Source: Bilabrum cf. latius (taxonomy: Eukaryota). Taken from it: a DNA stretch of 64,000 bases. Position 1 is the stretch's first letter; each line of letters starts with the position of its first letter. Made by a program: the position numbers and the translations under genes. The DNA is taken from contig OZ237736.1 of NCBI GenBank assembly GCA_965178125.1, positions 248,001-312,000 of the forward strand, given 5' to 3'. The notes below the pieces were generated by a model. The model was given only the letters and a program-made list of their open reading frames with translations, was not told where the DNA came from and made no database searches. Positions 17,101 through 53,663 of the stretch are shown here, piece after piece.

Positions 17101-18725
17101 CCCCCCTCGGCAGTGCGGTGGTTGGGTCGCGCCCCCGCCGCAACTCGCATGTCCGCCGCGTCGTGCTGCTGCAAAACAGCGGGCGTGAGCTGATTCCGCC
17201 TCTTGCTTCGAATGGCCCGCGGCACCGTTGAGCCTCTCGGCAGCTCTGCATAGCCAGCAGCAGCAGCTGCAGCGGTCCTCTTTGACGCAGTGGCAGTCGC
17301 CGCGCCACCCGCGCCCGTGACCGGACGATAGCCGTGCTGGATCGAGTTGGCCTTCCTGGCCACCTGCTCAACGGACACATCGCAGTCCCGCACCCACGAC
17401 CCGACAGACGCGATCATTTCGCGGGCGATGAGACGCCTCCCCTCCTCCCCTTGTTCCCTGGACGCGGCCTCCTCCAGCCTGTGCCTCGCCGCTCGCACCG
17501 CCAGCGCGAACCCCCCCGTGCCGCTGCCCATGACCGCCAGGTCGAGTCGCTCGCCGCGGGCACCATACCCCCCGGCGCCCGGCACGATAATCCTCTTCCG
17601 GCTCGTGTCGTTGGGACCGTCCGCGTCCTCGTCCGCACCGCTATATTTCTGATCCACCGGTGGAACAGCAACGATGGCCTCCACGTCGTTCCTGCCCTTG
17701 GCCCACAAGCCCGCGCGGAAGAGCTCTCTTTCCGATCGCACCACGGTCGCGCGCTCTGCACCTCCCCATAGGCGCATAGCAGCCGCAGCTGCCACGGCAG
17801 AGATGGCTGGGATCCCGATGCAGGCGAAGGCTATGACCAGACGCTGCGTGCTGAACAGCCCGTCATTGGTGTCACCCGAACCACCGTCCCCCCCTCTCGC
17901 TGCCCGCTTCTCTCTGCCCACCTCGATCATGCCCAGCTTGAACACGCCCAGCAGGACCAGCAATAGAGCCGACAGAGCAGCCGCCCATGCGGCCCAGGTG
18001 CTCTCTCTCGCCTGCATCGCGTCGCCCCTGTCGAACACATCCATGGCGATGCGCTGCCGGCGGCGGGAGGCGGCGGCATCTAGGGCACTTGCATCGCGGC
18101 TGGCGCCGCGCGAAAACTTGCCATCTACATTGTCTGGATCGGATCGGAAGCAGCTGCAGCAGACCCACGTCTTGGACAGGCCGCGGCAAAGCCAGCGGCA
18201 GTCGCACTGCCAGCAGCACTTCGAGCCGCGCATGCACGTGCCGCAGATCCAGCACTGCGCAATGCACAGCAGCACTGCAAAGAACATACTAGATACGTAC
18301 GCTATGTCAAGCAAGGAGGTCCTCACACCGACGTCAGATATCGACCAGAGCACCATTTCCAGGCCGACGTCCATGGTGTTTCCAACAACATTTCCGAGCC
18401 ACGACCGCTCCCCATTCCCGATGCCGTTGAATGCAAGCATATCCGTAAAGTACGTGACTGTTGGAGAATCACCATCCGCAGCCGAAGAATCTGTCAGGGA
18501 CGCAGCCTCGTACATGAACAGGGCCACGCTGCACACGAGCCCAACTATTGCAACCAGCTGCAGAGGTGTTTGCGCCGCCCAGGCGAAAAGTAGCCAGAGA
18601 ACAACGAAAAAGCTGCCGAATACCAGCATTAGCCCCGCCAGCGGTCCAAGCACAGCCATGATCACGAGGCGCTACAGCGAGGATGGGCTGCTTTTTGTCC
18701 CTTGCTTAGGATAATTCTGTGCCAT
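14169..18725 (-). CDS. ABHD4/ABHD5(CGI-58)-like alpha/beta hydrolase with an N-terminal multi-pass membrane region and long insertions, ~1518 aa
   Basis: One frame through TAG at 18672, 16206, 15597 and 14382. Motifs VVLCHGFGQGAG, DWGGMGGSSR, IAAHSLGGYLA, FMYGGSHDWM and SGHHLYCEQ; the last lies beyond a TAG. Ends at TAA. Confidence 0.85.
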
Positions 18726-18910
18726 AGTCAGTCCGATCGCCTGATATTATTACAAACTACAAATTTGAAGTGGAAAGCAGATCGAAGCTAGTAAAATGGT
18801 GGTGCCACGGTCCTGAATCTGCCAAAAGCCAGTTTCTCCAACTTTGTTTTCATCTTCATAATTATCAGAAGACAAAAGGAAGGCTGTTTCCGCTGTGTAC
18901 ACCTACAAGT

Positions 18911-20125
18911 ATGTCTGGATTCGATTTTCATGAGTGGCAACTGCATGGCGACCATCTATAGCGAGCAACAGTTGGAATGCAACTGTCCTCAGTGATTATC
19001 CCGGGCCTCGTCATAGGCGGTATCATGGTTGGGGCATTGTCAAAAAGCTCAGCGCAGAAGTTCCGAGAAGGAGGAGGCTAGAGAATGGTGCGATATGCTT
19101 TACGAATAGGGGTCCCAGTCTCGCTGGGCTCTGTTGGATATTATACACTAGAGGGGGCACTGCGCGAATCGGTAGCAAGGTACCTCGCCGGCGGTGCAAC
19201 TTTGCCGACGGTTGAGGGAGATGCCAAAGCTACAAAGACTACAGACACGGTATTTCCGTCGTTTCTAGTAGTCAGGCCGAGCACATAGTATGCTGCCACG
19301 TTGTAGTGGCTCGATAGGCGGGGCGTTCGGTGGGCGTCCGGGGAGCTCCGTGCAAGCTAGAAGCAGCCAGATGCCGAAGAACTCGAAAACTCTCACTCGC
19401 AAGCTCGCTCGGGAGATTTTTTGGCTGACGCATCGGCTGATTTTGGCCGGGAACCGCTGGACGATCCGTATCAGCGACGTCCACAGACGCAGGAACCTGC
19501 TCCAGCGCAAGCCGGCCCACTGGCATCCGAACCATCTCGAGCGTCCACCGGCATCGCCAGCAGCAGAAAAGCAGAGGACGAAGAGCTTGAATTCGCGCTT
19601 GCGATCCGTCGCGGTCGCGGGCACCACAGCATCCGAGAGGCCAGGGAGGTCCCGAACGCCTCGGAGCTGCCTGCCACACCGCCCGGCGGCCGACTTGACG
19701 ACTCGGAGCCGCCCGTGCAAGGGCTGGAAGGCTCGGCGCAGCCTACTGGGGCGGTAGAGGGGAAGGATCCCAGGGAGCGCACGGCCCTGGAATCGGTCGC
19801 GTCCTCCATCGGCGGGATGGAGCAGATGCGCCAGCGAGCGAACGAGTACTTCGAGTCTTTGATGCAGCCAAGGGGGCCCCAGGACGGGATCAGCCCTGCC
19901 TGGCTGCCCCCGACGATCGCGAGCAGGGGACTGGCGGGTGGAATCACCGCGGTGTTCGCGAACGCAATGATGGATTCGGGCCTCAAGGGCGGGATGCGGG
20001 GGCTGGGCCTCACCGTGCTCGTCGGCGTGTTCCTGGCGCTCACAGTTCCAACTTTCGAGGATATCATGTGCACGCGAGACGAAGCCAAGCGAAAGGAAGA
20101 GGCGAATTCGGTGCAGAAGTACTGA
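18911..20125 (+). CDS. Membrane protein, 404 aa with 5 in-frame TAG; possibly Tim17/Tim22-like with a central insertion
   Basis: Continuous frame from ATG 18911 to TGA 20123 when TAG is sense. Hydrophobic Gly-rich helices at both ends (IIPGLVIGGIMVGAL; RGLAGGITAV...GLGLTVLVGVFLAL). Family assignment is tentative. Confidence 0.6.
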
Positions 20126-20191
20126 GCGTGGCTAGCCGGTGGAGGTAGATTTACTCGGCGGAATCCAAGAGAGCAGGCGCGATGATATTTG

Positions 20192-20436
20192 TGACGCCGT
20201 CCACTTGTGCAAATGTACTTTAGTATACTTAAGTACACTTGCACAAGTGGACGGCGTCAGTGGTGGTGGATTTTGCTCTTAATGGGTCAAATCGTGCGTG
20301 GAATGGTTGATTGCTGAGAGGATCTGTGTGGGGATGGGGTGTGTGGAGGGGGGGTAAAGTGAGGGTGTGGGGTGGAGGTAGGAGTGGGTGTGTGGGGATG
20401 GATGTGGGAGTTTTCGTGTTAATTTCTCGTATTGGT
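20192..20436 (+). repeat. Left terminal inverted repeat, including a 68-bp palindrome at 20192-20259
   Basis: Matches the reverse complement of 26371-26560 with few mismatches. Palindrome arms are 34 bp with 2 mismatches. Confidence 0.9.
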
Positions 20437-20438
20437 AG

Positions 20439-20789
20439 AAGGAGTGGTGTACCAAAAACCTCGGAGCGAAGTGGATTTTTGATGCGGAGGATCACGAGCT
20501 GGTCTTGGGAACCGAGGTGCACGTCAACTTCGCGACCGCGTGGACGTATCCCGAAAAGTTCTACGAATCCATTGTAGAAGGAGAATGGGGGGTGAAAGCA
20601 GCGTTCGAGGAGTCTGCCAGTGACTTATTTGGCGTGTGGACCCTCGGCGATGTCCCGTACAAAACCGCGGAGGACCGTGCAGCCGTCACGAAGCTGGAAG
20701 CTCCCAAGGCCATTGTGGCGTGGCTGGAGGGCGTGGCAGAGGAGTATGCCGAGATAATGGCCAACGAGGGAGAAGGAGATGATGAATGA
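20439..20789 (+). CDS. 5'-truncated YubB/Api92-like (DUF1281 C-terminal, ferredoxin-like fold) phage-type protein
   Basis: EWCTKNLGAKWIFD...VNFATAWTYPEKFYESI...VKAAFEESASDLFGVW follows the family pattern W..NWGTKW...F.TAWSPP...E.G..F.G as I recall it. No start codon; abuts the TIR; ends at TGA. Confidence 0.6.
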   Translation, partial: KEWCTKNLGAKWIFDAEDHELVLGTEVHVNFATAWTYPEKFYESIVEGEWGVKAAFEESASDLFGVWTLGDVPYKTAEDRAAVTKLEAPKAIVAWLEGVAEEYAEIMANEGEGDDE

Positions 20790-20828
20790 ATTCTGATGGT
20801 TGAATGTCAGCTCGAGCAGGGCTGTGAA

Positions 20829-21421
20829 AGGGAGGAGGTGGTCTGCTTGCCGTCGGAGGGGTGCAGGAACAGAGACACGTTGTGGCCAAGATTTGGCTTT
20901 ACTGGGGCGAACGAGCGATTGTCTGAATTTTTCCAACAAGGAAAACGGTTTTAGAATCAAGTTGCGTCATTGAAATCGTGTCCTAGTACTCCCAAACGGC
21001 TTATAAGCATCGATTTTTGGATCACTAGCAAACCCAATCGCCTCTCCCCCGATGCGGTCGCTCCCACCTACTAGCACAAGCCGCTTTGGTGGCTCAAGGG
21101 CGGTGCAGAGCGATACACAGACGAAATTGAGGCAGACGAGGAACGTGATGAGTGGATTGGTGTACCAGAGCGATAGGTGTGCTAGGGAGGAGGTGGTTTG
21201 CCGTCGGAGAGGGGCAGGGACAGCGACACGTTGTGGCCAAGAGAAGGCAATGCTGAGGCGAACGAGCCATTGTCTGAATTTGTCCCACAAGGAAAACGGT
21301 TTTAGGATCAAGTTAAGTCATTGACACCGTGTCGTACTACTCTCAAACGGCATGAAAGCCTTGATTTTCGGATCACTAGCAAACCCATTCGGCGATCGCC
21401 TCTCCCTCGATGCGGTCGCTC
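20829..21421 (+). repeat. Two diverged ~235-bp direct repeats (20829-21063 and 21184-21421)
   Basis: Shared blocks include GACACGTTGTGGCCAAGA, ACAAGGAAAACGGTTTTAG, GGATCACTAGCAAACCCA and CGATGCGGTCGCTC. Confidence 0.85.
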
Positions 21422-21782
21422 ACGTGCCCCCTGCTTTGCCCCCCTCTTCGCCGTAGGGTTCGCCCCCCTCTTTGTGGTGGGTTTCAATACAGAACTTCAC
21501 ATACTCCAACTTTTCGACCAGAGCTGCTTTTTTTCCTAGTGCGGCTTGCCATTTCGTCTTGGCGCAGTCAGCTTCGATCTGGGCGCGGCCAGCAGCCTGC
21601 GACGCGGCATTAAACTCCCGTCGTGCTGCACGCCACTCCTCTATAGCTTCTTCTGCAGCGGTACGTAGAAGCACTTCCGCTCTCTCAAGTCCTTTCCCGA
21701 ACCCCGCTTTATAATCCTTATCCATTTCTTCGGTAAAATTAATATGATACCAGTCGCTAGATCTACCTTTGGCGTAAATCAC
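21420..21782 (-). CDS. Hypothetical coiled-coil ORF fragment inside the TIR element
   Basis: Open for about 120-150 codons with protein-like composition. No clear ATG; ends at TGA adjoining the direct repeat. Confidence 0.3.
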   Translation of the reverse strand: MIYAKGRSSDWYHINFTEEMDKDYKAGFGKGLERAEVLLRTAAEEAIEEWRAARREFNAASQAAGRAQIEADCAKTKWQAALGKKAALVEKLEYVKFCIETHHKEGGEPYGEEGGKAGGT

Positions 21783-21917
21783 ATTTGGTTGCGTGTTGAA
21801 TGGACTTCCCTTTGTGGCGGGCTGGTTGAGGAGTGGCTTGCCCCGTGACCGTAACTCTTGTTCTGGCCAGTACCAACTTTAGTGACAAGTATTCACAGCA
21901 TCCGACCGCTCAACCCA

Positions 21918-22385
21918 TCACTCCGCATTCACGCGGTAGATTTGCACCTCCTGCCCCTCCAGGGCTAAATCGTGGCCATCGCACGATCCGAACAGCTCGG
22001 GGACGGCTCGCCGAGCAACCACGGCTCGGCAAATCTCGGCGAACTTCTCCTGCCCCTTAATTATGTCGGCTAGAGCATGAGAGAAGGCGGTCTTGTCGCG
22101 ACAGGCGGCGAACACGATCTCGATCACGTCCTTGGGTAGCCCCGACCATTCCGACAGGAACGCGGTGGGTAGCTCGTCCAGTGTCGCCTCAATGATCTCC
22201 TGCTGGTACTTGACGAAGCAGTTGTCCTTAACGGTGAGGAACTTGGCGGTTGGCTCACCCACTGCCATGCAGACGACCTCGTACCAGCCGTGCTTCACGC
22301 GGTTGACGGTCTCGGTCTCGTATTTCTCCAGCTTGGGGTACTCCTTCAGAATGTTTGCCCAAGCATCGGTGAACACCTTCCGCAT
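21918..22385 (-). CDS. Hypothetical protein resembling an uncharacterised bacteriophage family; start may lie further upstream
   Basis: FLTVKD...EIIEATLDELPTAFLSEWSGLPKDVIEIV...ELFGSCDGHDLALEGQEVQIYRVN parallels, from memory, phage proteins with YLVLTD...FL....LP...F...FL.SYDG.E...YIYR.N. Ends at TGA. Confidence 0.5.
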   Translation of the reverse strand: MRKVFTDAWANILKEYPKLEKYETETVNRVKHGWYEVVCMAVGEPTAKFLTVKDNCFVKYQQEIIEATLDELPTAFLSEWSGLPKDVIEIVFAACRDKTAFSHALADIIKGQEKFAEICRAVVARRAVPELFGSCDGHDLALEGQEVQIYRVNAE

Positions 22386-22602
22386 TTCATCCTCCTTGGG
22401 CTTATCTCCGAATGTAAAGCCTCCAAGACTCGCTATTGCTCCAGATTTGGGGTCCTCGGGGCGATCCGCTGCGTCGCCAGCTGGTAGAATCAGTTGGTGA
22501 GGCCAGCAAGGTCTCTGAGATTGAGGTCGCGCGGTGGGCGCAGGACCCGCTCGAGGTGCAGGAGCAGATGCGACGTAGCGATGCGGAGGAGTGAGAGAGA
22601 GA

Positions 22603-25216
22603 ATATAATATGTCTGAGTCAAAGCACACACTACCCAACTACAACGACCACCCCAAGAGGCAATCGCACTGGGCAGGTCGAACGGATCAGCAAGCTCACG
22701 CCATGGGCTCCGCAAGCTGGGCCGCTCCTCCGTGGGGGAGTTGCGCTGCTTGCGGTCCATCTGCGTTCGCGATGCCTTCGTGTTCGATTGCGTTCGGATC
22801 AGCCGCCTCGTCCGGTGCTGCACCCTCAGCTCCTACTGCAGCTGCAGCAGGTACTGCGGGCACAGCTGGCGCTCCAGCTGCATCCAAACCCTACGCACCA
22901 CCAGCTCCACCAGCCTGCTGTAGTGCCACTCCTAGCTGCGCAACTCCCGCTGCCAGCTCTCCCACCTGACCACCAGCTCCTGCTGCGGCCGCTCCCTGTG
23001 CGCCGGTTGCCTCCCTCTGCTTCAGCAGCTCACAAGCGTTAAGGTTAAATTTGCTCGTGAAAGCTGCGTTCCGCATGGCGACCAACCTGGCGATATCCCG
23101 AGCCCAGAACCTGACCTGGGCATCCACTGACTTGCTCCCATTCTTCCCGAGCCGCTTACGCCTGATGCGTGCTAGCAGCTTGAGGACCCCTCTGGCTCCA
23201 TCTCCGATCCTGCCTGAAGGCTGGATCACAAAATCCCGAAAGATCACCGTTTTGGGATTTTTCAGCGTCTTCACTGGGTTCCCCGTCGCCCCCGTGGGGA
23301 TACGACCAGCCATCCTCCGGTGCGGAGGCACCTCCAGATGAACCTCCCTGTGCTTCCTGAATGCTCCCCTGACCCAGGCAGTCTCATCCTGGTAGTCCGA
23401 GCCCACGGGTTTCGCAGGTCCGGTGCGTTCCCCCTCGCGTGCTCCCTTCTTGAACCTCTAGTTGATCGGTGCGAGTGCGGCTTGGGCAAGCGGGTCCACG
23501 CAAGTCACATCGACTAGGATCTCCTTCTCCCCTGGTCCTCTGTGGATCACCAAATCCATCCTGTAATCCTTTCCCTCCAAGTACTGTCCCGTGTCTTCGG
23601 ATGACGCTTTATATCCTGTCGCGTGCTGGCCGATCCTGCACAACTCCCTCTTCACAGTCTCGTGGATGCCCGTGAGCCGCCCCTTGTCGGTGGCTCGCTT
23701 CAGCCTGTTCCCACAGCAGCTCATGTGTCTTACCTGGTGTATGTACCCGGTGCCGCATCGGCACTCGGGGTCCGGGCATACCAGGTTCATCTCAGCTTCC
23801 AGGTCGTGTGTCCCGTCTTGGTGCCGCATCCGCTTGAGCACCTCCTGCGCCTGCCTTGCCGATGGTGACGGTCCCATCAGACGCCTGCAAAATTCCTCTT
23901 GGTACCCCTTGTTGGCAGGAATGGTCACGCCATAACCAAACTGCTCCTTCACGTAGCAGGCGCGTAGCAACGCCCCTGCGTCGGCTGACCTGCAGCTCCT
24001 GATCAGCGCCCTTGCTCTCTGCATCTCCACTCGGGCCCTGTCTGCCCACTGTTGGTCTTCTCCTAGGAGGCGTTGTTGGAACCCTGGGATGTTCTGGAAG
24101 GGCTTCACCAGAAACATCTCCGTGCAGGCACGATCTGCAGCCTTCTTCATCAAACTTTCGTGGTGGCCACCAAACTTCATCGGATCGTCCCCAGCGAGCC
24201 GTTGCATATGCCTCAGGTGACTCTTCAACCCTTTTGCCTCCAACATGAACCTCTCCGGGTTCGCGGCGGTCCGCTTCGCCCTTGACACGTTGTCCATCGG
24301 GTCCACCTCGATGAACACTTTCTTGGCAATTTCCACCTTGACCTTCTCAATCGGGTCCGGTGTGATGAGATTGTGCTCCGCACACTTCACCTACTTCTCG
24401 AGTGCTGCCTTCGTCTCTGGGTCGCTCAGCATCTCTTCGAGTCTCGTCGGGTCCCACACCGACTTGAGACATCCTGGCATGTCCTCGTGGGGCACCGGTT
24501 GGTGCCACAGCTGGTACTTGAGGCGTTGGTTGGGGTCCTCTTTGGCCGATCGGACCAGTCCCTTCATCTTGTACAGTACCCAGCGCACAGCCCAGTCTGC
24601 CACCTAGAGCACGGGCGCACTGTGAAGTCCGTACGTGTCGTGTTGGTTGTTGACTGGGCCTGCGGTTGCCTCCTCGAGCTGGCTAAGCCCGCTCATGAAA
24701 TCCAGGTTGTACTTCATCGCCAGGCCAGTTAGTCCTGGTACCACATCGAGGACCATGCCTGCGAACCGTGCTACCAGGGCAAGACGTTCTGGGATCAGTG
24801 CAAGCCCGACTCCTCCCTGAGCTAGAGGAGCTTTCCTCTGGTGGCGGACGCACTCAGCTCGTAGGAGCTGGTCGTTCGCCCTATAGAGGCCTGTGTCGAA
24901 ACTGGCTATCAGGTCCGTGAACGCCTCCTCGAGGCGTTCAACTCTCTGCAGCGTCCCCCCTTTCTCCAGGCCAATGAGAATACCGCTCCTGCAGAAGTGC
25001 TGCCACTTGGGCTGGATGCACGTCCTGAACACGTACACCGCTAGTGATGGCTTCAGAAGGCCGCATAGAACGACCCCATTTGCAACATCCACCAGCCGCT
25101 CTCCCAGGTGCTTCTCCACAAACTCCCTGGTACGTGACACCGGGATGCCAGCCACGACGATCCCCGCTGCGTTCAGCGTGCCCTGGAGTCTCCCTGCATC
25201 AATATCCTCGCGGATC
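22603..25216 (-). mobile_element. 5'-truncated non-LTR retrotransposon with restriction-like endonuclease (CRE/SLACS-like), inserted in a (GA)n tract
   Basis: Flanked by the 13-bp duplication AGTGAGAGAGAGA (22590-22602 and 25217-25229). The uninterrupted flanking sequence exists at 55922-56427. Confidence 0.85.
22696..25215 (-). CDS. Retrotransposon ORF C-terminal part (end of RT, thumb, Cys/His knuckle, REL endonuclease) with 4 in-frame TAG
   Basis: Motifs VAGIPV, APLAQGGVGL, CPDPECRC...HMSCC, IHETVK, RMDLVI...ILVDVTCVDP and FVIQPSGRIG. Single frame through TAG at 24604, 24391, 23458 and 22891 to TGA 22696. Confidence 0.85.
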
Positions 25217-25799
25217 AGTGAGAGAGAGAGAGAGAAAGCGGCTAGGGATGCAGACTAGGAGCGGCGGCGACGCGGGGTGGGCGACGGATGGAGAGGGGAG
25301 TGGTGTGGGTGGAGCAGAAGGAGAGGGCGAGGGATGGGGGAGGGGGGGGGGTAGAGAGAGAAGGCGATAGATGGGCGGGGGGGGCAAAGCAGGGAGGAGG
25401 GGGGGGGGCGGCGGTTCACCAAGTGGGGAGGAAGAAGTGGAGGAGAAGATGAGTGGTGGGGTCATCGGGTTGATACGGCGGATAGGAAGGGGGGAGGCAC
25501 AGGCCGGGTAGGTGGGGGTTTGGGCATGTGGGGGACGAGTGACTCGGATCAGGGGGGATCGGATCACCCGACCACGTGCGGATGTGGAAGTTGAGAGGTC
25601 ACAATTAGACTCGAGCGGCAATCAAGCCGCGTGCTATTCGGGCGCTGAGGGGCAGCGCTCGCCAGTTTTCTTTTTGGTAACTTTGAGGATGGGCTCTCGG
25701 AGGAAACCAACTACAACCATGTGTGACTGTCTGCGAGATTAGGGTGCTGTGTACAACGTGTGATCTCATCAGAATTATGCTCCGCTCCTTAGAAGGTGA

Positions 25800-26370
25800 C
25801 AACTGATAGAAGCCAAAATTTATGTACTACTTTTGCATAAGAATATAAAATATAATTAAGTGCAAAAGTGGTACCGATTTTCGCACTAAAAAGCGATACT
25901 ACTAAGCAACTCGAGCCGACAAATTCTTTCTTTGGAACAACTTCTAGAATTGACCTTTGGAATCCACCACAAATTCTTGTACCAGTTTTGTATCAGCCAA
26001 AAAATATGTACCAGTTTTGTATTAAAATATATTATTGTAGTTAGTGCAAAAGTGGTACGCCCCAATTTTAAGAATTAAAGACAGAAAGCCAACATCCCTC
26101 GCCCCGCACCCACAGTATCACCCAGTTTTTAAGTGTCTTGTATACAGACAGATACCTGAAGATTCTTATATTGATTTTGTAGCGACTGACACCCAAAATT
26201 AACTCATTCTATCACAACATCATCCCAAATCATCAACCCCACCACACCCCATCCAAACCACAGCACACCCCCCCAGCATCTGCCCACACCAACACAAATT
26301 AACACGAAAACCCAAATCTAGATTCATACCACAGTATTTATAGCATAGATTATGAAATGTGTAGCAAGCG
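25800..26370. repeat. AT-rich subterminal region of the TIR element with short internal repeats
   Basis: Markedly AT-rich against the GC-rich host. An imperfect ~65-bp duplication (agccaaaa..tatgtac...gtgcaaaagtggtac) occurs near 25812 and 25996, and gtaccagttttgtat is repeated. Confidence 0.6.
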
Positions 26371-26560
26371 ACCAATTCGAGAAATTAACACGAAAACTCC
26401 CACATCCATCCCCACACACTCACCCCTACCTCCACCCCACACCCTCGCTTTACCCCCTCCACACACCCCATCCCCACACAGATCCTCTCAGTAATCAACC
26501 ATTCCACGCACGATTTGACCCATTAAGAGCAAAATCCACTTGCACAAGTGGACGGCGTCA
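26371..26560 (-). repeat. Right terminal inverted repeat
   Basis: Reverse complement of the left TIR; ends ...GGACGGCGTCA followed by ATTTG. Confidence 0.9.
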
Positions 26561-26699
26561 ATTTGGACGTTGCGAGTCTAAAATGGACAGGAATGCACAG
26601 CAAATCGTGCGTGGAATGGTAGAATGGAAGAGACAGTAATACCGCTCAGAAACACGACTTGTCCTTAATATTTTGCATAGAACAGTGTACCTGCTTCAA

Positions 26700-29001
26700 T
26701 CACGGCTTGTCCTGCAATGACCTCTGCCTCACCGAGTGACCGACCGACGCACCCCCCGACGCCTCGACGGGCGAGCTGGGCAGCTCCATCTGATCCATGC
26801 CTCCTGCGCGCTGCTGGTGCTCGGGCATCTGATCCAAGGGAAGCACGCGGCCGTTGCCCCAAGAAGCAGACGACTACGGTGGCGAGGAAATCGGCATGCG
26901 GGTGGGCGTTGCGTCTGGCGGGTTCCATCGTCTCCTGGATCGAGAGGCGCTTCGCGACTGACCTCCCGCACGGTCCGCCGGCCCGTACTGCAACCGCTCG
27001 TCCGGAGGCGAAAACCCTCCCTCCTCTTCATCTCCCCCATAAACTCCCACATAGGATTCTCCTCCCAGCTCGCGGGCGCACGCCCCACTGGTTCGCCTCG
27101 CCAGCGGCAGCCTCCCTGAAATCTTTAGTTTCGGCAAGCCCGCCCCCCTCTCCACCACGCCGTTTGCAGCACCCTTGCTGTAACCTTTTCCGTTCGCGTT
27201 CGGCTTTGCCATCCTTGATGCCCTCTCCTAAGCCACTGATAGGATGGCAGTCAGCACGAACCATAGAACCATCCCGCACACGAATGTCATCCACACCGTC
27301 TTGCCCCAGTCCACAACGCTCATGCTTTTCGCGTACATCCAGTAATGATGCACCGTGCCCACGAATCCGTCGTCGTCCAATCCAACCAGAGCCTTGCTGA
27401 CCTCCAGCCTGACAGCCGCAGCGTCCTCCAGATCGAGGCAGCTCGCGGCACACGCGCCCTCGCCCCTGGCGGCGAAATGGTCGTGGCAGCACGCCTGGCA
27501 CTTGGACAGGACTGTCTCTGGCACTGCCACGGGCAGCGATGGCAGTGCCCAGGAGGTCCTAGCTGTAGGCTGTCCCCCCGTTGTTCCCTGGGGAACACCG
27601 ATGGCTGCCTCAATGCCGAGGGCCTCCTCGGGAAGCTGCTGCCGCTGCGAGTCGAGGGCATACTCAGCGATCAGGCGCGCTTCACCATCCACTAGTGCCT
27701 ACCTTGCCCTCTCCCCCACCAGCACCGCATCCACCGCCGGGTTGGTGCAGACCTGCACCTGCTTCTTCATGAGCTGTGCCTCGACGAACTCGATGCCGTG
27801 GGAGACTCCGGGCACGAAGGGCTGCAGCCAGGCACGGATCGCCTCTAGTGCCGCTGGGGAGAAGATAACCGCGTATGCTGCCGCCTGCATGGACACTTTG
27901 ACGCACGCTTTCCCAACGACTGTCGCCGCAAAGAAGGTAAGCAGCGGTACGCCGCAGTGCCCGCAGGTAAGTCCGGCGAGGTCGAAGAAAGGGTTAGGGA
28001 CCGAGGCCGCGAGCAAGACCGCCCAGAAGCCGTATTTCTCCACACCGTTCTTTACAAACTTTTTCATCCACGTTGCTCCGCTGTGGAACATGCCGACGAG
28101 CGGTCCGCATAATGGCCCGCAAAAGCTGGTAGTATCCGCGTCGCCCCGTTTGCTGGGGTTCGCCCTACTAGCACCATTCCTTGCGCCTGTGCTATGTGAA
28201 ACCTCGATGCTGTTCTCTTCCACCTCCCTAATTTCGCTTACCCTCCTTCCAGCCTCTGCTGCCGCTTTCGCCACGAAGTACGGAGGCAGCTCGCCGACGG
28301 CAGTGCCAAAGCCCCACAGAAAACAAACTAGCCAGACCTTGCTGACGATTCCTAGCAGTGAAACAGGGGGTCTCCTTTCACTGCGGGTACAATTCGGCGC
28401 AAGCAGATACTCCGCGGCAGTGGTGAGAGCCTGGCGGGGTGGTGGTGTGGGGCGAAGGTGCAGTCGGCGTCGTCTGACTCACGGGTCTCCGGGAGGGCAA
28501 TCGAATGCATCCTCGTCGTACTACAGTTCGATACCATACGAATTTATTCTGGCCGAGAAATCGAGGGAATTGCACGCCACCGCCGCAGTTGCTACCCGAA
28601 TAATGTGTGGGCCTGTATACAGGAGAAACGTGTGTAGGCCAGAGCCCAGCCCTACCGATGATAGCACCCCCATCAAAATCCAAAAGACTATGGATTCAAT
28701 AGACTCAATGCTCTGGGTCTGGTATGCCTCAGCCCCCGGAATAGGGGCAACCAATGAGATGACTGCAGCGCCAATAAGAAGTATCGCACCCATGACTGTT
28801 ACCGGGTTGCTTCGGATCCATCGTTGAAGCCTGCGCAAATAGATAGAAAGTAAAATCGATACACCAGTCGTTACCCAAGCTTGGTCAAGTGCGCATGAGA
28901 AAGGGGTGGTGGGCTTACGATTGAAACAAGTCAAGTATACTTCCGTAGAAATGCACGGCAACTCGAGTTGGTCGTGTCCACGACAACTCTGCAGTTTTCA
29001 T
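26700..29001 (-). CDS. VMP1: Vacuole membrane protein 1 (VMP1/TMEM49); exons 29001-28919, 28830-28483 and 28380-26700; 4 in-frame TAG
   Basis: Motifs [42 protein letters not shown] and [21 protein letters not shown]. Introns GTAAGC..GCAG (28918-28831) and GTGAGT..GCAG (28482-28381) restore the frame. TAG at 28521, 27699, 27228 and 26874; ends at TGA. Confidence 0.92.
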
Positions 29002-30096: not shown

Positions 30097-30508
30097 TGGG
30101 GTCCACGGCCGTGGATGTTCATGTTACTCGAGTGCTCATCGCCCACCGCACCTTGTCATTTCCCTCTACCTCCCCCCGCTTGCCTTCAATTTCCTGGGTA
30201 GACCCCCATTCCCCTGTTTTCTAGTCAGCACGCTACATTGGGCTTCCGGGACACTGCTCCGATGCCGACCCCATGCATGCCCCGGCGCCCGACTGGTTTC
30301 ACCTTGCTGCGACTGCTGCTCCCGCACGGTCCACCCCTGCCAGTGGTTCGGGTCGCCCCCCCGGACTAAACTACGCGGGTTCAGACGCGACACTCCCGTT
30401 GTCCGACATGGCCCAAGAGATTCCCTGAGACAGCGAACGTTCATAATCCTGTCGCGGGGTTCGCTAGCAAATGGGTGAGCCACTCGTCCAGTTCAACCAA
30501 GGCGCGCC

Positions 30509-33500
30509 ATGCTGCCTTTCGAGCATGTGGGCCCTGAATATAATCGGCTATTGGAGTAGATTCATGCACGAATCAACGACGATCCGGGCTTTGGGAGCCT
30601 GTCGTCCGACGAGCTGAGCCGCCTGGTTGGATTGCAACCGCTGAGCAAGAGCATATCTTTCGAGGAGAAGGCTCCTTCTTGGACAGACAAGTGCCTGCGC
30701 AATACTATACTCATTTTGATGCTGCGAAATGGGAGCTTGAGACGTAGAGTGGGCAGCTAGGCGACGTCGAGGAGTGATGTTGCTTCTCTTACGGGGTGGG
30801 CTGGGCACAAGCTTGTTCGAGCAGATGATGTTGCAGAGTACATTGGTACTGTATATGCTAGAAATCAAGAGAGTATTGCGCTGATCCCAGCGGAGGAAGA
30901 GTTTAGCGCTTGGCGCGATCCCCGACCTCGGCTATCGCACGGACTTCACGATTCCTACGAGACCACGTTTAAGTATCGTAATGATGCTGCCCCGCAGACG
31001 TCCTCACATGTAGCAGATTCCGAGGCTAGTAGCCCGGAGGCTACGGCTCTCAGCGCGATTCGAAAATCGCTCGAGGCTCTGGAGGCGGCTGCCCTCGAGA
31101 TTGGCGGCATTGACCTCAAGCAGCTGCAAGTGCCAGGCACATCCGATGACGAAGTAATGAAGCAAGTGATCTCAAAGGCCGTCACATCAGTTCAATCAGT
31201 GCAGGACACGATCGCGCCAGTCATTGACCTGGTCGCATCTCCAGCAGCAGGCGATGGCACCATCCCAGCCGCGCTGCAGATGGCCTGCTTGTTGACTGGA
31301 CAGAAGATGCCAGCGAGACACGCGGACCCATCGTATCATAACAGTAGAAAAGGCTCTGTCCCTGGAGATGACGACGCACCTACTAGCGGCTCTGGCTCCG
31401 ACATGTCCTCTTCCTCGAGTGCAGCAGACGTAGCTGCGGCCCGCGAGAGGCTCGATGAGATGAGGCTGGTCCTGCTCCACGCAGCACTTTTGACAGGCGT
31501 GCTGAAGCATAGCAACGTCCATTTCTCTTCAGGTTAGAAAGTGCCACCAGCTGCGCCCTCTGCCGACGCTGCCGCGACGCAGAGTCCCAGCAAAGCCACT
31601 TGGGACCGCGCGACGACCGCCATGCAGAGGATTCACGCGATCTTCCTCCTCATCAACTTGGGAAGGCACATGCCGTTGGAGGAGCTGGGCATCCATGGAG
31701 GTGATTCGCAGCCCAAGCGTGACGCTCGAAGCGATGAACATGAATCCAAGGCAATGAGTGGGAGGCATCGCTGGCTAGATGTTGCTCGCCTGGGAGTGGT
31801 CGATGCTGGTGGTGGTGGTGGTGGTGGTGGTGATGGCTACAGTGATGACGATGAATAGCTAGAGGAAGATAGCCGCCGCGATCGAATGATGATCTTGCGG
31901 GTGGAATGCATGGCGCGATCCGTGGCCGCCCTGCAGTCCGCGTCACAGACCTGCGTGCCTCTTGCAGAGGTCGCACCGCCCGACCTAGCAGCGGCAGGCA
32001 AACGTTGCCTAGATGCGTTTCAGCACAGGAGCCAACTGATGGACAAGACCCTGGGTCAATCGGAGGGCATGGACACCGATTGGGCCATCGAGCAGATTCT
32101 CAACAGGGGGCAGCGGCAGATACAGGCAGAGAGCACGATGAAGGAAGGCCGCAGCATCATGAAGAGCCTTGACCAGCACAAGCTCTCGCAGCGGATGGGT
32201 TGGATTGCGTCCATGCGCACCGGTATGTTTGGTACAAGGCTAGAAGGCACCGATGCTACAGTCACTAGCTGTACCAGCTCATCTGCGACTGGTGGTTTAG
32301 CTGGTGCAGCCACTGGAAGCGGGGCTGCGACACCTGAGTCAACTGGTGCAGACCAGCTGGAGGTTCCCATGTTTCGGGGCTTTGGTGTTCAAAACCGCAT
32401 GGAACTTTCAGTGCTAAGCGCTCTGCTCGGGCGATCGAGACAGAGGCATGACCCAAGCTACATTGGCGTGGTCTTTGCGCGGTGCATGTCCACCATGAGG
32501 CCCTTGATCTGCAGGGTCAAGGCAGAGCTCGAGACCCTTCCGCTATCAGTCAAAATTCAAGCAGCCCAAGCGAGTCGGCAGAAGCATGTCGATCGGGATG
32601 AAAAGTTTAGATTTCGTTCAGCGGCCTCTGACGTGGCAGCCTCCAAGGAGTGCCGCGATTTCCTGCCTCTCGCTTCGCGAGCAGCGCTCATGAGAGTAAT
32701 CTGTGAGCTGCTGCAGCTGTGGAGTCCGTCGCAGGTTCACGCTGCCGCGCACTCGATCGTGGCCTTGCTGCCCATGCTCGACGCCAGCCTGTCAAGCGTC
32801 AGGCTGTCCAGAGATGGGCAACTGCTCGCTGACTTGAAGCCGGTTCGTAAGGACGGGTGCTTTGGCCTGGTACCGCACGGTGACCCCGCGACGAGCCTGC
32901 TTGTTGCGATTGACGCGTGGTACGAGGCAGCGCAAGCACTCTCTGCCTTCCTTCCGAGCGGCGCGTCCAGTGTGGAGGCCGACTCTTTGGCCACTTCTTC
33001 TTCTTCAATAGACGAGGTCGTCAGCATGAGAATTGGCTCGTCGCCTGCCTACCTCGGATCCACGTGGCTGGCGGGGCTTCTGACTGTTTGTCTGACGGGC
33101 AGGATCGTGCGGTCCTCGCTATCGATAGGGGGTGAATGTGTGGACGCATAGCCGGGTGAGTCGGCTGGTTCTGCCAGGGCTTTTCATCGATTGTCTGGAA
33201 GCAGTGACGAGGTACAAACGATCCACAGCCTCCTGGACCCCATGAAGGGTGTAGAGTCGCTGGGCAAGGAGCTCGAGCAGATGCATGCGGGCCAAGCCAT
33301 TGCAGCCACGGGCGGCTCGCGCCACAACGGCCTGGCATGGTCGCAGCTGATGGCCCTATTCGTGGCGAGCTACTCTATATTCAATCCGTTTCCTCGTGAC
33401 AATGATCGCGATGAAACCATGATGCGAGACTTGGCCATGAGGGCCTTCGTGCCTGCCGCTGTGCGTGCGTCCAGGACGTTGCTCGGCGTTCACCACGGTG

Positions 33501-36500
33501 ACTTGCAGGGAGACCGGCTGTCAGCTGCGCCTCAGGTGGCTGCTCTGATGATGGAAGCGGCCGCCTGCCGGCTCCGCGCATTGCGCGCCTCGACGGCTCA
33601 CCAGCTTGCGTTTTCGGACCCGCTGCCACCAGAGACCACAGGGGATGGCTTGGACCTCGCACAGTCTGCAGCGTTCTTCGGCAACGTCATGCTTCGTTTG
33701 CGGAATGACGCTGAGAGGAGCGCCTCCTTCCAGGTGTACACCGATCGAGATGCGATCGGGGTGACCACGAAGATCTCCGGTGCCAGCGTCGCGAAGTAGC
33801 TTCGGGGACAGGTGGTAGCTCAGTTGGAGCCGCTGGGAGCCAACGCGTGGCTGAACCCGAGGGACCATATACATCCATTGGCTGGGATAAGGCGGTTCGT
33901 GCAAGGACCAGACGCAAGCGGCACTGGCAGCGATGGCACCACCGCCGCCGCATCATCAGCCGAGACCAAGCGAGCATCGCTCGAGGACGGCGAGGACGGC
34001 GGGAACGCAAAATGCAAAGGAGGCGACATCGTTGCCTAGCTGGGGACCCCAGGCAGCTGGCTTGTGATCACGTAGACAGACGCGGACGAGCTGGTCGCTT
34101 CCGCAGGCGAAGATCTCATGTCAAGGCTGCCACCGCGGGACCGCTGGCTCGTTGTTGAGCTGCCAACCAATGATTTGTTTGGCGTTGGTCCTTTCATGCA
34201 CGAGCTGTGCGGTCATTTTCGGGACGCGTGCGCCTCGCTCCCTTGGTCCCTGCATCACAGCACGACTGGCAGGGTCATTGAGGGCTTTCTGCGGGGCGTA
34301 ACCCCAGGTCCACCCGCCAAAATGCCCGTGCGCACTGGGCTGGAGCAATTCAGGACCAGTGTCCAGGTGAGGGACTGGCCCCGGGCCCGCTACGCGCTCA
34401 AGCAGCTAGCGGGCCGCGTGCCCAGGCAGAGGCTGTGGCTGGAGATGACGAGGGCTTCAGAGGACCCTGTTCTGGCCGTTGAGATGCTTGCCACGGAGCC
34501 CGAGGCCTTTGTCCTTGATTTTTATCCCAGGGCGTTGGATTGTCTGGGCAAAGAGCTGCAGGTAGAGCTGGTCGCAGCTCTGAACAAGGCCATAGCGAGG
34601 TGCAGCAAGGCCAAGTACGACGGCGTGGTTGTTCGCCAGGCGACCATCTCTGGGGTGTCATCCTTCGCGGGTATCGGAGACGCGCCAGAAGTCCGGGCGT
34701 CTTTCTTGGCTGCTTGTCAGACTGGGGTGACCGACACGGCTGCTCACCTCTCTCTCCTTGGAGCCTTCGCGATGTGGAAGGACTGCCTCCTCGAGGACAG
34801 CATCATCCGGTCCATGCAGCCGACTAGACCGAAGGACCTGCTCGGGGGCATCCTGGGTAGCGTCCGGATCGATCCGGCGGAGGGTGCCGGCTCTCACGAT
34901 GTGCTGCCCCTGATGCAGAAAGTGCCGGCCCCGTGTCCGCAGCTGCGCTCGCCCGAGGCACCGTGCAGGGCTGCCGCGCCCCCAATGCTGATGCTGGGCG
35001 ATCGGAGCGCGTCGATCAAGGTGGGCGCGGCGTGGAATGTCTTTGATGGGGAGGAGCTGCTCGAGGCCTCGATCCGGTCTGTGATGGAAGTGACCCACTA
35101 CCGAGTTGCAGTGTACCAGCGGGTGTCCCATTTCGGCAGGAAATGCTCAGCAACTCTCCTGAAGACGCTCAAGAGCCTGGTAGACAGGGGTTTCCTGCAT
35201 GAGATCGTTGAGTACGACTAGAAGAAGGAACCGATGACGAAAGAGAGGAAGAAGTCGATGACGAGCCGCAAGGCGACCGGGATGGACTTGGGTGGGGCGA
35301 GACCGGAGGAGATCGGTGACCAGTTCATCCACGAGGTGTCCAAGCGGGAGCAGGGGCGACAGCTGTGCCTCAAGGCAGGCTGCGACCTGTTCATGTCAAT
35401 GGACTGTGATGAGTGCTACGAGGCCCAGGCTCTGCGATCCGTGTGCGAGACCATTGTGCGTCTGCAGTACGACGGTGCGGTTTGCCTGATGCGGCATTAC
35501 ATCCGGCACCCCTGCTGGGAAATGACACCGATGGATCGTTAGAACTACGTTTCTGTTGTCTGGAGGCTGTCGGAGCACCTGCCGTGCCGGCTGGGATGCC
35601 CCACGGGATTTCTACTGGACCCGACCAGACGAGTGGAGCACGCAACCAAGATCCTAGAGCTTAGGCCTGATCAGATGGTTATGCACCACTTCACGCTCGT
35701 CCGCAACAACATCGATTCGAAGCTGGGCAACGTGTCTAACCGGAACAACTACTTGGGCCACCGGGTGGGAAGGAACGGCAGGAAGCTGGATGGTGCCCTC
35801 ATCCTGAGGAACTTCGTGAAGTCTTTCAAGGACTGGAACCCGCGCGACCACCCGCTTGTGCACCCCCATCCCAGCGCCAATGATCGATTCTTTGGGGTCG
35901 TTGTAACCCCTAATCTGTTTAATATTGAGATCAAGTCGATGAAGACGTGCCCGGATCTCGAGCCTGGCAGTGTCTACCTCACCATACCAGATGCTGGGTA
36001 CGGCGAACCGTTTCTAGGCTGCGACGGACAGCGCTATGTGATACTCTGCGAGATGGCAGGCATGATGGGCCCGATGGGGGGACCACACGATCCGATGGAT
36101 CCGGGACAGGCTGATTTAGCTAGGATCGAGAGCCTAGAAAGCAGGCTAGAAAGACCCCACTAGGCGAGTGGCCATGACAGTGGAGGTGGTAAGTTCTTGG
36201 GAGACCCAGCGAGGGCCCATTTCTCATCACTTGACGACAAGTCGAACGGCAAAGCGGTTGGCGGGGGCACAACCGCTGCAGCAGCAGCCGGCGAGCCATC
36301 GCTCGCAGCACATGCTGGTCCCAGCGGGGCTGGGACACGCTCACATACCAGAAGAGACGGCGCATCAGCAATGCAGAGCAAGGGAGCGGGAAAGTATTCG
36401 GGAACTTGTGGTCATCATTCAACCGGAACTCTAATGGTGGGCACCGACGGATTTCCTGCGGATAGGGATCGGGACGGCTCGGGACGTGCAGGGCACGATG

Positions 36501-37297
36501 ACGGGCAACAGCAGTCTGCGCCGGACTCTGGCTCGGCCACCCGCAGCCACGCCCAGAGCCAGGGTCGCACTCCTGACACTTCAAAAGCATCCATCTCATC
36601 CAGCACCACCTCCGGCAGCGGCAGCGGCAGCGGTGCCACGGGGGCATCCGACGGGAAAGTCTTGGCAGATGCAATCCAGAGGACAGAGCACCTCCTTAAC
36701 CAATTTGCGAGCCAGATTGCCACCGCCACAGGCACCACGCACACCGCATCCGTGGGTCTGATCGGGGGGCACTCGGCCTCGCCCGACGTCGGCAGCCAGG
36801 CGTCTGCCAGGCACCTGTCAGCAGCTGAGCAGCTCGCGCACGACGACCAAGGGGCCTCTGGGCCCGTGGACGAGGCAGAGGCGAAGGCGGCGCTGAGCAG
36901 GCTGGCCTCAATCGGGATCCAGTCGCCCGCTGGCAGTCCGGGGCGGAAGGATGCATCGCACGGTGGTGCGGGCGGGACAGCGGCCGACACGTAGTGGGCT
37001 GGTGGGACGCGAGGAGGTGCCTTGGCTGTCGGGGGGAGAAGGTCAGGGAGCGGTGGGGGCGGCGCGGGCAGGAAGGGAGCTGCGAGCGGTGCTGGCTCTA
37101 GCGGCCTCGATGGCATTGATTCTGACGGGCTGGACCACGTGCTTGGCCACCGCGTCGCGGGGCAGGGCGTGGTGGACGGAGGTGGGGCTAGCTCCGGCGC
37201 GCACCAGCAGCTCTCTGGAAAAGACGGGGATGAGGCCAGGAGGTTGATTCAAGAAGGTCTTGCTGGCATGGATGACGATGGCCTCGGACTGGATTGA
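30509..37297 (+). CDS. Large protein (~2262 aa, 12 in-frame TAG) with a C-terminal GT-A-fold glycosyltransferase domain (~35015-35940)
   Basis: Ten listed ORFs from 31130 to 37297 share one frame and are separated only by TAG. The domain reads KVGAAWNVFDGEELLEASIRSV...YQRVSHFG...HEVSKREQG...MSMDCDECY...LDPTRRV...MHHFTLVR with a DxD motif. Start uncertain; ends at TGA. Confidence 0.75.
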
Positions 37298-37643: not shown

Positions 37644-40600
37644 ATGCAGGGCTAGACAAAACACCCTGATATGCTAGTGTCCAATCCATCGGAGCAGACG
37701 GTGCTCAAACTTTGCCACGCAGCTGGGCTTCGTCATGTGATATCTCCGGTAGCAATCGGCTCCGTACTTTCTGCCGAGTGCAGAGGTTTGGTAGAAAGAT
37801 TGCTGGCGCAGTCTACCTCAATGGCGGTATGCAGGTCTTCTGGTGCTTCAGTGGCGTTCGGCGCCGACCACGAGGAAAGTCAGTAGACTTTCGATGAAAT
37901 TGCTGGAACCAATCCACACAGTCCTGGTGGAAAAGATACTGGTGGCATATTTGGTCCTGTTCTACGGTTAAAGGTATGCGCAAGAGACGTTGCATTGGCA
38001 CTAGCAGGCCCAGGCTCGACCCGAGAACTGCTGGACGCTCGCGCTGCTTCCGCAGTGCAGCCAAAAGAGTCTGCCATGGATGCCGAGTCGCTGAATGCAG
38101 GTGCTAGTCCGCCGCAGCGGGGTGCATTTAACACGAGCAGTGCCCCCGCAACGACTTCCGAGAGCATTGCCGCGCTGTGTCCGAGCAGCAGCTGGCAGCT
38201 GCCGAGCCGGCGGGCCCCTCTGTTGCTACTGCCGTACCTCTGGAGGAAAGGATCCATTGCTCCTGCCATTGCGTGCGTGAGAAGGGCACGACGCGCAGCC
38301 CTGCAGCGGTACAGAATATCCACGTGCGGCCTGCAGGCCCTGCTGTCCCTGTCTGCGGATGGAAGCGGCCGCCTTATCACGGTTTGGTCGGGCCTTGCTG
38401 CGTCATCCATGGCCGGGCTGGCCGATGTCGGGGTCAACCGTTTAGGTAAAGCAGCTCTGCTGCTAAACAGAGCCGTGGACAGTCTCTAGAAACTAGAATC
38501 TCTCGCGAGGACATGCGGTGGCGACATCGTGGCCTCGTCGTCCAAACGAGATGGAACGATGGACACGGCGAGCACACGAGCGGCCGGCGACAGCAGCGAT
38601 AGCGACAGCGACTCCCTAAATGATAACGATGAGCGCATGCAAGCAGTGGATGACTGGCACAGGCAGCTCAGAAACACACTCGAGACGCTCCAGGCATCCC
38701 TGGAAGAGGCCGGCGAGCTGGCAGCTGCACCCGAGCAAGGAATCCTTGACGAAGGTCGCGGTGTTCGGGTGGCCCGGCTTGTCAGCAACTAGGCCGTGGC
38801 ACGAACTTTCAGCACGGAACTAGCCGCCACAGTACTACATCGCACGTACAGGCGCCGCAAGATTCTAGCTCGGAAGGCCAAGGCAGGTGGTTGGACTGCT
38901 GCAGGCCCGCACACGACAGGGCCTAGGCGAAGGACAGCGGCGGGGAGCCGGGGCTCGAAGCGAGGCACTAAAGGAGGAATCGCAATGCGAGGCATCTTAC
39001 GGAGGCCGCATGTTGCGAACAGTCTGGGCGGCTCGGTGACGAGTGGTGCGACAGGTGCTGCGTCATCGACCGCAGACGGCAGTAGCGCCAGCGGTATCAC
39101 CGGCACTGCCGCAGGTCAGGGCCATTTGGATGCGCCCCCCAAGCTGCGGAAAGAGGGATCAGATTCAGGTGCGTCCATCTCGTCGGCTGCAGGGAACTCC
39201 AGTGCTGCTGCGGAGCAGCGCGAGACTGGCTTGCACCCACTGCTTCACCCCACAGGGTCAGACGGCGCCAGTGGAATCGGTCACTCGTCACACGCGGGCT
39301 CCGCCTCAAGTGCGCAGCCCCGGGTCACACTCGGTGTGAAGGAGGATAACGAGTCGCTGGTGGTTGCGTGTGAAGCGGCAGCAACGAGCATGCTGAGAAG
39401 GCACGAGCGGGCTGCGTACAGCCGCGTGGCAGACATGCTGGAGGTGTTTCAAGATCTTCTGGCAAAGATAGTACGTCACTTGGAGGGCCTCAGATCTAGC
39501 ACTCGCAACCGAACTAGCTCCATGTCGGACAACTGGGACATGCAGAGAGAGGGTTCAGATAGCAAAACTAGCGACGGGGCTGGACACGTGGACTGCGTGC
39601 TGAATGCAGAGGAGCTGACACGTGTCTCACAGTGCCTCTACTCTGTGAGTTTGTGGAATTACACAGAGGTGCACGTGGGTTATGCTCAGCAGAATCGGGA
39701 GTTTGCCCGCGCGCTTGCTAGGGAGGTCGCGATCGACGCAACGGGTGCGATGGAGGTCTGCGCCCTGGAGCTCTGCGAAGCGGCTGCTGGCAGGGCGCAG
39801 CACAGGAAGGACGGTATCGTGCGTGCGGTACACGTTGGAGAAGCCGCTGAATACAGCAGAGTGATGGTGAGGGATTCAAGTTGATACGGTTGTTTGATTA
39901 TTTCGGCTCCGTTTGTGTAGTGTTGTGCTGTGGTTGTTGATTGGTTACTGCCCGACCGTTACCATGACCGGTAAATGTTTCCCAAACCAGCCCGAGCATT
40001 TTCCGAGTTGATTTGTCGCTTCTCGCAGCAAAAGGATCTTTCTTGTGGCAGCTCCTTGCGGTTTCCCGGGGCTATGCAAAGCGGCGAATCCATGCAGCAA
40101 ATGGACTTGTTGCCTTCCCTTGGCGAGGTATGGACTCGAGCCGAGATGGACGGCAGGCCAATGTGGGCGCAAGTCCCTGGCTCCGTGTGGACCATGCCTG
40201 AGGCCATGGGCGGGCATAGAGTCAACGCGACTGCTGCATCGCTCAAGTGCGTGCGATAGTCGGTAGGACGGGGAATGCTGATTGCATTGTACTCTGACAT
40301 TCGCGCCGTGCTGGAGCTGATCAAGGAGCACAAAGCAGCCGCTGCCAAGCGGAGGTAGCAGCGAAGGGGCAGCGGCCGCGTGGCGGCGGGACTTCTGGCG
40401 ACTACCTCCGGGGCGCCTGGACGGCGATCCACGTCACCGCATTCATAGTCCAGTCCCACAGGCTCGCAAGAGAGCGGGACGGATGTATCAACCGACGAGT
40501 TTGACGAAGATGAAATGCTTACAAGGCGTCGGTCATCGGCCGCGAAGGGGTTCGCTGCGTTGCTCTCACCCCGATCCGTACGGAGCTACTCAAATTCATC

Positions 40601-52600: not shown

Positions 52601-53663
52601 GCCTCCCAGCCTTGACATCGACACGGACGTCGCTGACTTTGACGAGGGAATTCGGGGAGGCCCGAGCCAGGGCAAGGTCAGGATCTCCTCGGACGTCGTG
52701 TACCGGGATATCTCTCCTCGCAGGGAACAAGAGGACGTGGATCACGAGCCGCTCGCTGTGCTGCTGCGACCAATAGTGATGCAGGCCGCTCTGACATCAG
52801 CTGCCGTCAGGCTGACGCCAAGGGGGTGCGTGGAAGCGGCGCAGGACGGTCGCAAGGGGTTCTCACCCACGGAGCAGGTCTGCAGCAGCCCGATGCTGGT
52901 GATGTACCACTGGGCCTGCGGATGGCACGGTGACCACGCGTCGCGATGGTGGCAATCGTCACACCCCTGTCTGCCGTCTGTTGTTCCCCGACCCCTCGCA
53001 AGCCCGAGGCTCTCTCCCGAGGTGTCCTCTTTGCACGCGAGCCACGCCGGCATGGTGACTCTGGGCGCGGCGCCGGTTCCGCAAGGGATGGCTCCACCCG
53101 CAGTGCCCAGCAGGACGCGACTGGGAAGCGTTGAATCCGCGGAGGGCGCGGAGGAGGAGGAGGAAGGGGGGCCGGAGGTGGACGACAGAGCGCCACCTGG
53201 CAGCGGCGCGGCGGGCCGGCGCGCGGGGCTCGGGGTGGGATTCGTGGCACCACCACGCCCTGCCCGGGGCGATGGCGGTGCAGGAGCAGGTGCTGGAGGT
53301 GCTCTGGAGTCGCCTGCGTCGTCTGGCTCCGGATCCTCCGCGTCGCCGTCCAGTGCCGTGGGGCAATCTGTTGCCCAGGCGAGCCTGAGCCCAGGGGCTG
53401 TGTCTCTGCTGTGCGAGGCTGCGAGCGCGCGCGCTTTTCGGCTGTTGCGGGCCGCGCGGATTGTGGCGCGGCATCAGGCGGGCAGGGTGCAACCGAGTGG
53501 GGAAGGTTCGCCGGGTTCGTCGGCGTCGCAGGGGGACAGGATCGAGCAGTGGTGCGTAAGCGCCGCGTCTGTTGACCTGGCTGCAGTAATTTCGCTGTAG
53601 CCGACGTGGGATGCGGAGGGTGAAGAGGTCTGGAAAGAGGGCAGGGGAACAAGAGCCTGGTGA
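37644..53663 (+). CDS. Giant (~5280 aa) largely disordered protein with several histone-fold-like segments and an internal tandem repeat; one intron at 39867-40028; ~37 in-frame TAG
   Basis: All ORF pieces from 37671 to 53600 are in one frame, linked through TAG only. The single TGA (39882) lies in a predicted phase-0 intron ATG|GTGAGG...TCGCAG|CAA. Terminal TGA at 53661. Start is 37644 or 37671. Confidence 0.8.
39867..40028 (+). other. Predicted spliceosomal intron (162 bp)
   Basis: GTGAGG donor, T-rich body and ttctcgcag acceptor. Removal eliminates the only TGA and keeps the frame. Confidence 0.65.
43420..45050 (+). repeat. Coding minisatellite, ~18 units of 87 or 93 bp encoding (GAGAGAGGGLGLSIRAPGRDAGPAPSAST)n
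   Basis: The core ggtctgtcgatccgcgctcccggccgggatgcgggcccggcgccgtctgcaagcacag recurs, and unit lengths are multiples of 3. Confidence 0.95.

Follow-up and report, generated by a model that had tools for sequence, protein, structure and literature searches.

A single-copy, hairpin-ended insertion in the genome of Bilabrum cf. latius, a probable remnant of a virus-like element

What kind of element lies at positions 20187-26565 of the 64,000-bp stretch of Bilabrum cf. latius DNA analysed here (the window; positions 248001-312000 of contig C2 in a eukaryotic assembly of 48.6 Mb and 111 contigs), and how did it get there? An earlier note on the window had proposed three alternatives: a deletion derivative of an endogenous virus-like element, a satellite of such an element, or a new cargo-carrying transposon. 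The analysis showed a discrete insertion, bounded by terminal inverted repeats (TIRs) with TG..CA termini and a 5-bp duplication, and carrying a foreign-type gene cut at the edge of a TIR. The best explanation, to which we assign a probability of about 0.6, is a single immobile internal-deletion remnant of a hairpin-ended polinton-like virus (PLV) or virophage that used a retroviral-type integrase; its parent was not found.

Element ends and terminal palindrome

The ends consist of the following features:
20187-20191, plus strand: left copy of the target site duplication (TSD), ATTTG, 5 bp
20192-20436, plus strand: left TIR, exceeding the right TIR by 53 nt owing to a palindrome
20192-20259, no strand: terminal palindrome of 68 nt (34+34 nt, 2 mismatches)
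25769-26370, no strand: AT-rich subterminal block, GC 0.38, in which a 15-bp motif occurs five times, partly in inverted pairs
26371-26560, minus strand: right TIR, ending in CA
26561-26565, plus strand: right copy of the TSD, ATTTG, 5 bp
26601-26626, plus strand: lone copy, 23-26 bp long, of a stretch from within the TIR, lying beyond the right end

The two TIRs are identical at 185 of 190 aligned bases and differ further by one 53-nt and one 2-nt indel. ATTTG is exact on both flanks, and a duplication of 5-10 bp was obtained by chance in 0.2% of 200,000 random junction pairs. The TIRs, the TG..CA ends with their duplication and the AT-rich block thus stand as they were first described. Short-read contigs of sequencing run X1 ran without differences through the left junction with its hairpin (18700-20295) and also through the right junction (26510-28300), and the ends are therefore not assembly errors. 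The element shows the trait of those PLVs and virophages that use an rve integrase, namely TIRs of hundreds of base pairs together with a TSD of 4-6 bp, and TG..CA ends combined with a duplication of 5 bp suggest insertion by a retroviral-type integrase.

The palindrome, missed in the earlier note, is created by the 53 extra bases of the left TIR. Its fold had a z-score of -11.75, being the stronger of two such hairpins in the 533 kb scanned, and contigs of runs X1 and X5 spanned it with 0 differences. A search of the hairpin against Rfam gave sub-threshold microRNA models only. Loss of hairpin sequence between short direct repeats would turn the left end into the right one, with no new bases needed, which suggests that the right end arose from the left. 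The motif GTGCAA..GTAC is present in each hairpin arm and in the AT-rich block; all four of its matches in the window fell within the hairpin or the block against 0.25 expected, for a pattern picked post hoc. The 15-bp motif repeated five times in the block is a version of it. The motif of the AT-rich block was found in none of the examined regions of the genome that carry protein-primed DNA polymerase B (pPolB) genes.

Also the TIR motif noticed outside the right end is real, and its surroundings are not TIR-like. The right flank was tried as an older, diverged TIR and rejected, as about 45% of shuffles aligned equally well. Our guess is that the piece came from a templated repair insertion.

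Cargo genes and internal repeats

Three open frames and a pair of repeat units make up the unique cargo, in agreement with the three short open reading frames (ORFs) and internal repeats first reported:
20445-20789, plus strand: ORF1, 3' part of a DUF1281_C/YubB-like gene, with no start codon and the 5' part missing at the inner edge of the TIR
20790-21423, no strand: two tandem units of ~350 bp, each with the end of ORF1 and ~280 nt of non-coding sequence, between the convergent ORF1 and ORF2
21420-21731, minus strand: ORF2, 103 aa, Ala-rich
21918-22385, minus strand: ORF3, 155 aa counted from the first ATG

The Atlas assignment of ORF1 to DUF1281_C (0.88) was used as a lead only. When ORF1 was used in a blind tblastn search of plasmids, the top match was a plasmid protein (E 0.04), which itself scores on PF18406 with an E-value of 2.8e-17 and is 29% identical to ORF1 over 105 aa. 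The alignment of the two scored 101, the maximum of 3000 shuffles being 63. A protein from a viral contig scored 97 against ORF1 (shuffles 63), and this contig, read from its ORFs, looks myophage-like. The cargo had been called phage-like as a whole; this holds for ORF1 and failed for ORF2 and ORF3, for which no homologues were found. A profile search of the genome with PF18406 gave no match, controls included.

The only genomic match to the unique cargo was found on contig C40 (positions 74407-75731), with 74-76% DNA identity. In the two DNA searches for relatives, 40 candidates each were scored out of 157 and 132, and a relative of the AT-rich block could have escaped them. The C40 copy is frameshifted and retains a family-like N-terminal part, weak when taken alone (E 3.4). 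Since this relative keeps the 5' part, the gene in the window was cut at the inner edge of the TIR. Differences between ORF1 and the C40 copy are distributed evenly over the codon positions (26/92, 23/93 and 28/94), and there is thus no sign of selection since the copies split. The C40 locus as a whole (74190-76065, corresponding to L043:4190-6065) comprises the DUF1281-like pseudogene, three units of 375-381 bp and a minus-strand frame, all inside an array of ankyrin-like genes. Beside it lies a dispersed repeat of ~265 bp (L043:6066-6330) with at least 15 other genomic matches; it was considered as kin of the window element and rejected as unrelated.

The two internal units are alike over 203 nt at 84%, and the three units on C40 are related to them. 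No RNA structure was detected in the repeat. A 15-mer of the repeat had 59 viral matches, none of which extended beyond 20 bp, and these were discarded. The likeness of ORF2 to the syntenic minus-strand frame on C40 was not significant (94 of 2000 shuffles were as good). ORF3 had a sole match, to chalcone synthase, among 1.84 billion representative sequences, which was rejected because it was the sum of weak matches to a protein with repeats. Single-sequence structure models of ORF3 were poor, with a predicted local distance difference test score of 45, and one fold search was empty. ORF3 may resemble a small phage protein family, a likeness that no search confirmed.

Some sequencing runs appear to contain RNA, although this is a guess: none is recorded as RNA and X5 is flagged as probably DNA. 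A contig of run X5 covered 21506-22520 at a depth of 204 and one of run X7 covered 21291-21731 at 77, both high values from study P2; in run X6 the depth over ORF2 and ORF3 was 9, and the host flanks were at 1-38; the C40-type unit reached 3978 in X5 and 467 in X7, contig depths of this kind being unable to rank genes. In two studies the RNA-like contigs over ORF2 and ORF3 end at about 21290-21310, which hints weakly at the end of a minus-strand transcript. It is possible that ORF2 and ORF3 are still transcribed. The AT-rich block and the right TIR were almost uncovered in runs X5-X7, which shows nothing by itself.

Nested retroelements

Two further insertions lie between ORF3 and the AT-rich block:
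22493-25768, no strand: solo A-B repeat of a Ngaro-type retroelement with split direct repeats, ~660 bp when the nested insertion is left out, the B part being 25674-25768
22603-25216, minus strand: 5'-truncated long interspersed nuclear element (LINE) inside the A repeat, with a 13-bp duplication in a GA run

The LINE fragment seen at first is real and is 48% identical to a reverse transcriptase-bearing ORF on C12, but the surrounding A-B repeat is a separate high-copy element, with dozens of copies across the genome. The Ngaro-type repeat entered the element later and the LINE then entered that repeat. When both are removed, the element proper measures 3,093 bp instead of the ~3.7 kb estimated with only the LINE left out. 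The layout of the Ngaro-type repeat at 27 loci was B-A-B in six, A-B in eight and A only or cut in 13. A copy on C28 has the A1..B1A2B2 arrangement of split direct repeats, looks decayed, and its single scanned frame gave no Pfam hit, whereas Ngaro elements have reverse transcriptase, RNase H and tyrosine recombinase ORFs. This arrangement has been described for Ngaro elements, and solo AB repeats are known from inside Cafeteria virophages (PMC8547959). The family has another solo A-B repeat in the window, at ~55923-56438.

Copy number and search for a parent

The TIR was not found elsewhere in the 48.6-Mb genome: DNA and pattern searches gave three matches each, all of them in the window. The pattern had 0 matches in viral and metagenome contigs. 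Other copies had been named as the mark of a transposon family, and this result speaks against one. In the DNA-like run X1 the element had the same depth as its flanks, ~9-18 outside repeats. Empty-site and extrachromosomal forms, also suggested as a check, were not seen either, as no empty-site or circle joint was among the 15 joints listed of 38. Pieces of the cargo occur without differences in two other studies; these are probably of the same lineage and thus not independent alleles.

The genome has 28 pPolB matches, and the 11 regions examined cover 13 of them. These regions hold elements of 17-18 kb with long TIRs, including Pfam-confirmed virophage capsid, penton and rve genes when read through TAG. 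No partner with the ends of the window element was found, in a survey that included no genome search for rve or DDE genes and did not effectively reach elements without pPolB. A search for Pox_A32 gave nothing despite the presence of virophage ATPase-like frames, and was thus insensitive. With no such partner found in the assembly, the element probably no longer moves.

Host genome and resident virophages

The element sits between two host frames that converge on it and end at 20125 and 26700; the right one (26700-28478, minus strand) has a VTT domain (Pfam E 1.9e-8). In the host TAG is a sense codon, 33 TAG codons being present inside one frame of 4,562 codons. This use of TAG is evident in the window at 39975-53663 and 30479-37297 and at L044:4203-9026, with TGA or TAA as stops. 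TAG probably codes for Gln; in a SNF2-type helicase motif on C40 it stands at a position otherwise occupied by Gln.

Many endogenous virophages were encountered on C9, C12, C4, C22, C27, C6 and C15, with GC contents of about 29, 37 and 45%. Virophage genes at L115:5504-7273, L115:7392-8501, L116:8348-9427 and in the L085 region carry in-frame TAG, and because of such codons (for example 26 in one frame of 1,255 codons) these virophages must use the reassigned code of the host. A literature search, judged from its listings, turned up no case of virophages with reassigned TAG and nothing on the present element. These endogenous virophages are possibly more interesting than the remnant itself.

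Three other loci differ in layout. An element of ~50% GC at C27:152700-158900 (L100) has few TAG codons, a small frame resembling pPolB and others resembling primase; it ends in a 149-bp direct repeat and adjoins a Ngaro repeat and a frame of 995 aa with the look of a DNA transposase. At C6:341546-387085 one virophage is nested within another, with two TIR pairs. At C27:610604-628630 a low-GC virophage contains, in several pieces, a GC-rich element whose inverted ends start with TG and which has a frame of 1,979 aa.

Origin of the element

That the element is a deletion derivative, as the earlier note had put first, is supported by the cut DUF1281_C gene, by the occurrence of this family in PLVs, by a parallel to the end palindrome in known elements and by the virophage-rich genome. 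An rve/DDE integrase of retroviral type, supplied by the parent, a linear dsDNA virus-like element, would have inserted the element. A large internal deletion would then have taken out the genes for replication, capsid and integrase, while the two ends survived together with a few accessory genes. The palindrome at the left end and the AT-block motif may have served as signals for replication or end processing, with hairpin priming as proposed for Halocafeteria elements, and slippage between short direct repeats within the hairpin could have cost the right end its palindrome.

Several results weigh against this explanation. The palindrome is present at the left end only, and no frame of the element matches a capsid, packaging ATPase, polymerase or integrase. 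ORF1 itself falls below the Pfam cut-off for PF18406, DUF1281_C is mainly a bacterial and phage family, and the C40 relic has no TIR. ORF2 had no homologue in any search run and ORF3 no credible one, its best results otherwise being itself or at E 5. The GC of the cargo, 0.55-0.59, is host-like and unlike that of the virophages (29-46%). The examined Mavirus-like virophages have no DNA similarity to the element, their best protein match had an E-value of 0.17, and their ends are different: of seven long inverted-repeat pairs read in these regions, six start in runs of G or C and the remaining one shows no relation to the element. The PLVs of Rhodomonas cluster C1, in turn, mostly have a tyrosine recombinase and rarely TSDs (PMC12220804). 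Absence of core genes is expected of a remnant; as no defining gene is left, the element cannot be filed as a member of the PLVs or virophages, remnant-like as it is.

Captured DNA, too, typically includes gene fragments cut at the edge of a TIR, and the element might be a non-autonomous cut-and-paste transposon, moved by an integrase-type DDE transposase (TDD/Ginger2-like or other), which captured foreign DNA in Pack style. The 190-bp TIRs, TG..CA and the 5-bp duplication fit this, as TDD-4/5 have TSDs of 5 bp and Ginger2 TIRs of 50-180 bp (PMC2836005), but the single-copy TIR, the end TGACG in place of TGTNR, and a cargo that is unlike the host and is arranged in the same way at C40 make such an origin unlikely. 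The alternative that no element integrated at all, and that an inverted duplication or fold-back arose locally around an old fragment of a foreign gene next to a 5-bp match due to chance, would account for a TIR sequence that occurs only here, in three local copies of which one is outside the element, and for the lack of a visible empty allele. It is quite improbable given the exact duplication at both TIR ends combined with TG..CA, and the whole lying between two convergent host frames.

We also doubt strongly that the element functions as a mini-satellite of a PLV, virophage or giant virus and is excised, replicated by its hairpin and re-integrated in trans, with its cargo expressed. Its TIRs are 97% identical, the hairpin is near-perfect and ORF2 and ORF3 are open, and putative RNA contigs cover these two frames and the C40-type unit. 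There is, however, one copy only, at the depth of its flanks, no joint indicating excision was seen among those listed, the coverage has the limits given above, and ORF1 and C40 differ evenly over codon positions. It is correspondingly improbable that a 3-kb hairpin-ended satellite, moved in trans by some PLV, virophage or giant virus outside the assembly, expresses two orphan genes and, with C40 as an older member, represents a transpoviron-like class that integrates by rve. The single-copy TIR, the lack of a partner in the regions surveyed and the absence of TGTNR thus give no support to the satellite or the new transposon family of the earlier note. Were the element mobile in trans, it would define minimal ends for replication and integration of such elements. 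As a remnant it represents ordinary endogenous-virus turnover, of which such remnants are a known by-product, and preserves a trace of a virus-like lineage distinct from those virophages of the genome that were examined.

Comparison with known systems

In its TIR length, TG..CA and the 5-bp TSD of TDD-4/5 the element resembles Ginger2/TDD transposons (PMC2836005), from which it differs in the end TGACG (TGTNR in Ginger1 and Ginger2/TDD), the lack of a transposase and the single copy. The family of its ORF1 is represented in Rhodomonas PLV cluster C1: PF18406 proteins of 168-188 aa are reported from 21 endogenous Rhodomonas PLVs (PMC12220804), and the C40 copy measures ~500 bp. This likeness lies at the level of the family, the closest sequences found for ORF1 being plasmid and phage-like. 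With the endogenous mavirus-like elements (EMALEs) of Cafeteria burkhardae it has in common a 0.2-kb TIR and a 5-bp TSD, both within the reported ranges, and a solo Ngaro AB repeat inside, whereas complete EMALEs are 5.5-21.5 kb long and carry virophage genes (PMC8547959).

Among the virophages and PLVs of Halocafeteria seosinensis, several subtypes have palindromes adjacent to the TSD, for which hairpin priming or accidental annealing has been proposed, and fragments retain TIR and TSD (bioRxiv 10.64898/2026.07.28.741278). Unlike those fragments, the present element is without any core gene, has its palindrome at one end, contains a Ngaro repeat and has no parent subtype found. In both, TIR and TSD have outlasted the core genes and LINEs are nested inside. 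With a TSD-adjacent palindrome of 68 nt, compared to 52 nt in Halocafeteria, the element would add a case, in another host, of this structure, which has been proposed as a signal for hairpin priming.

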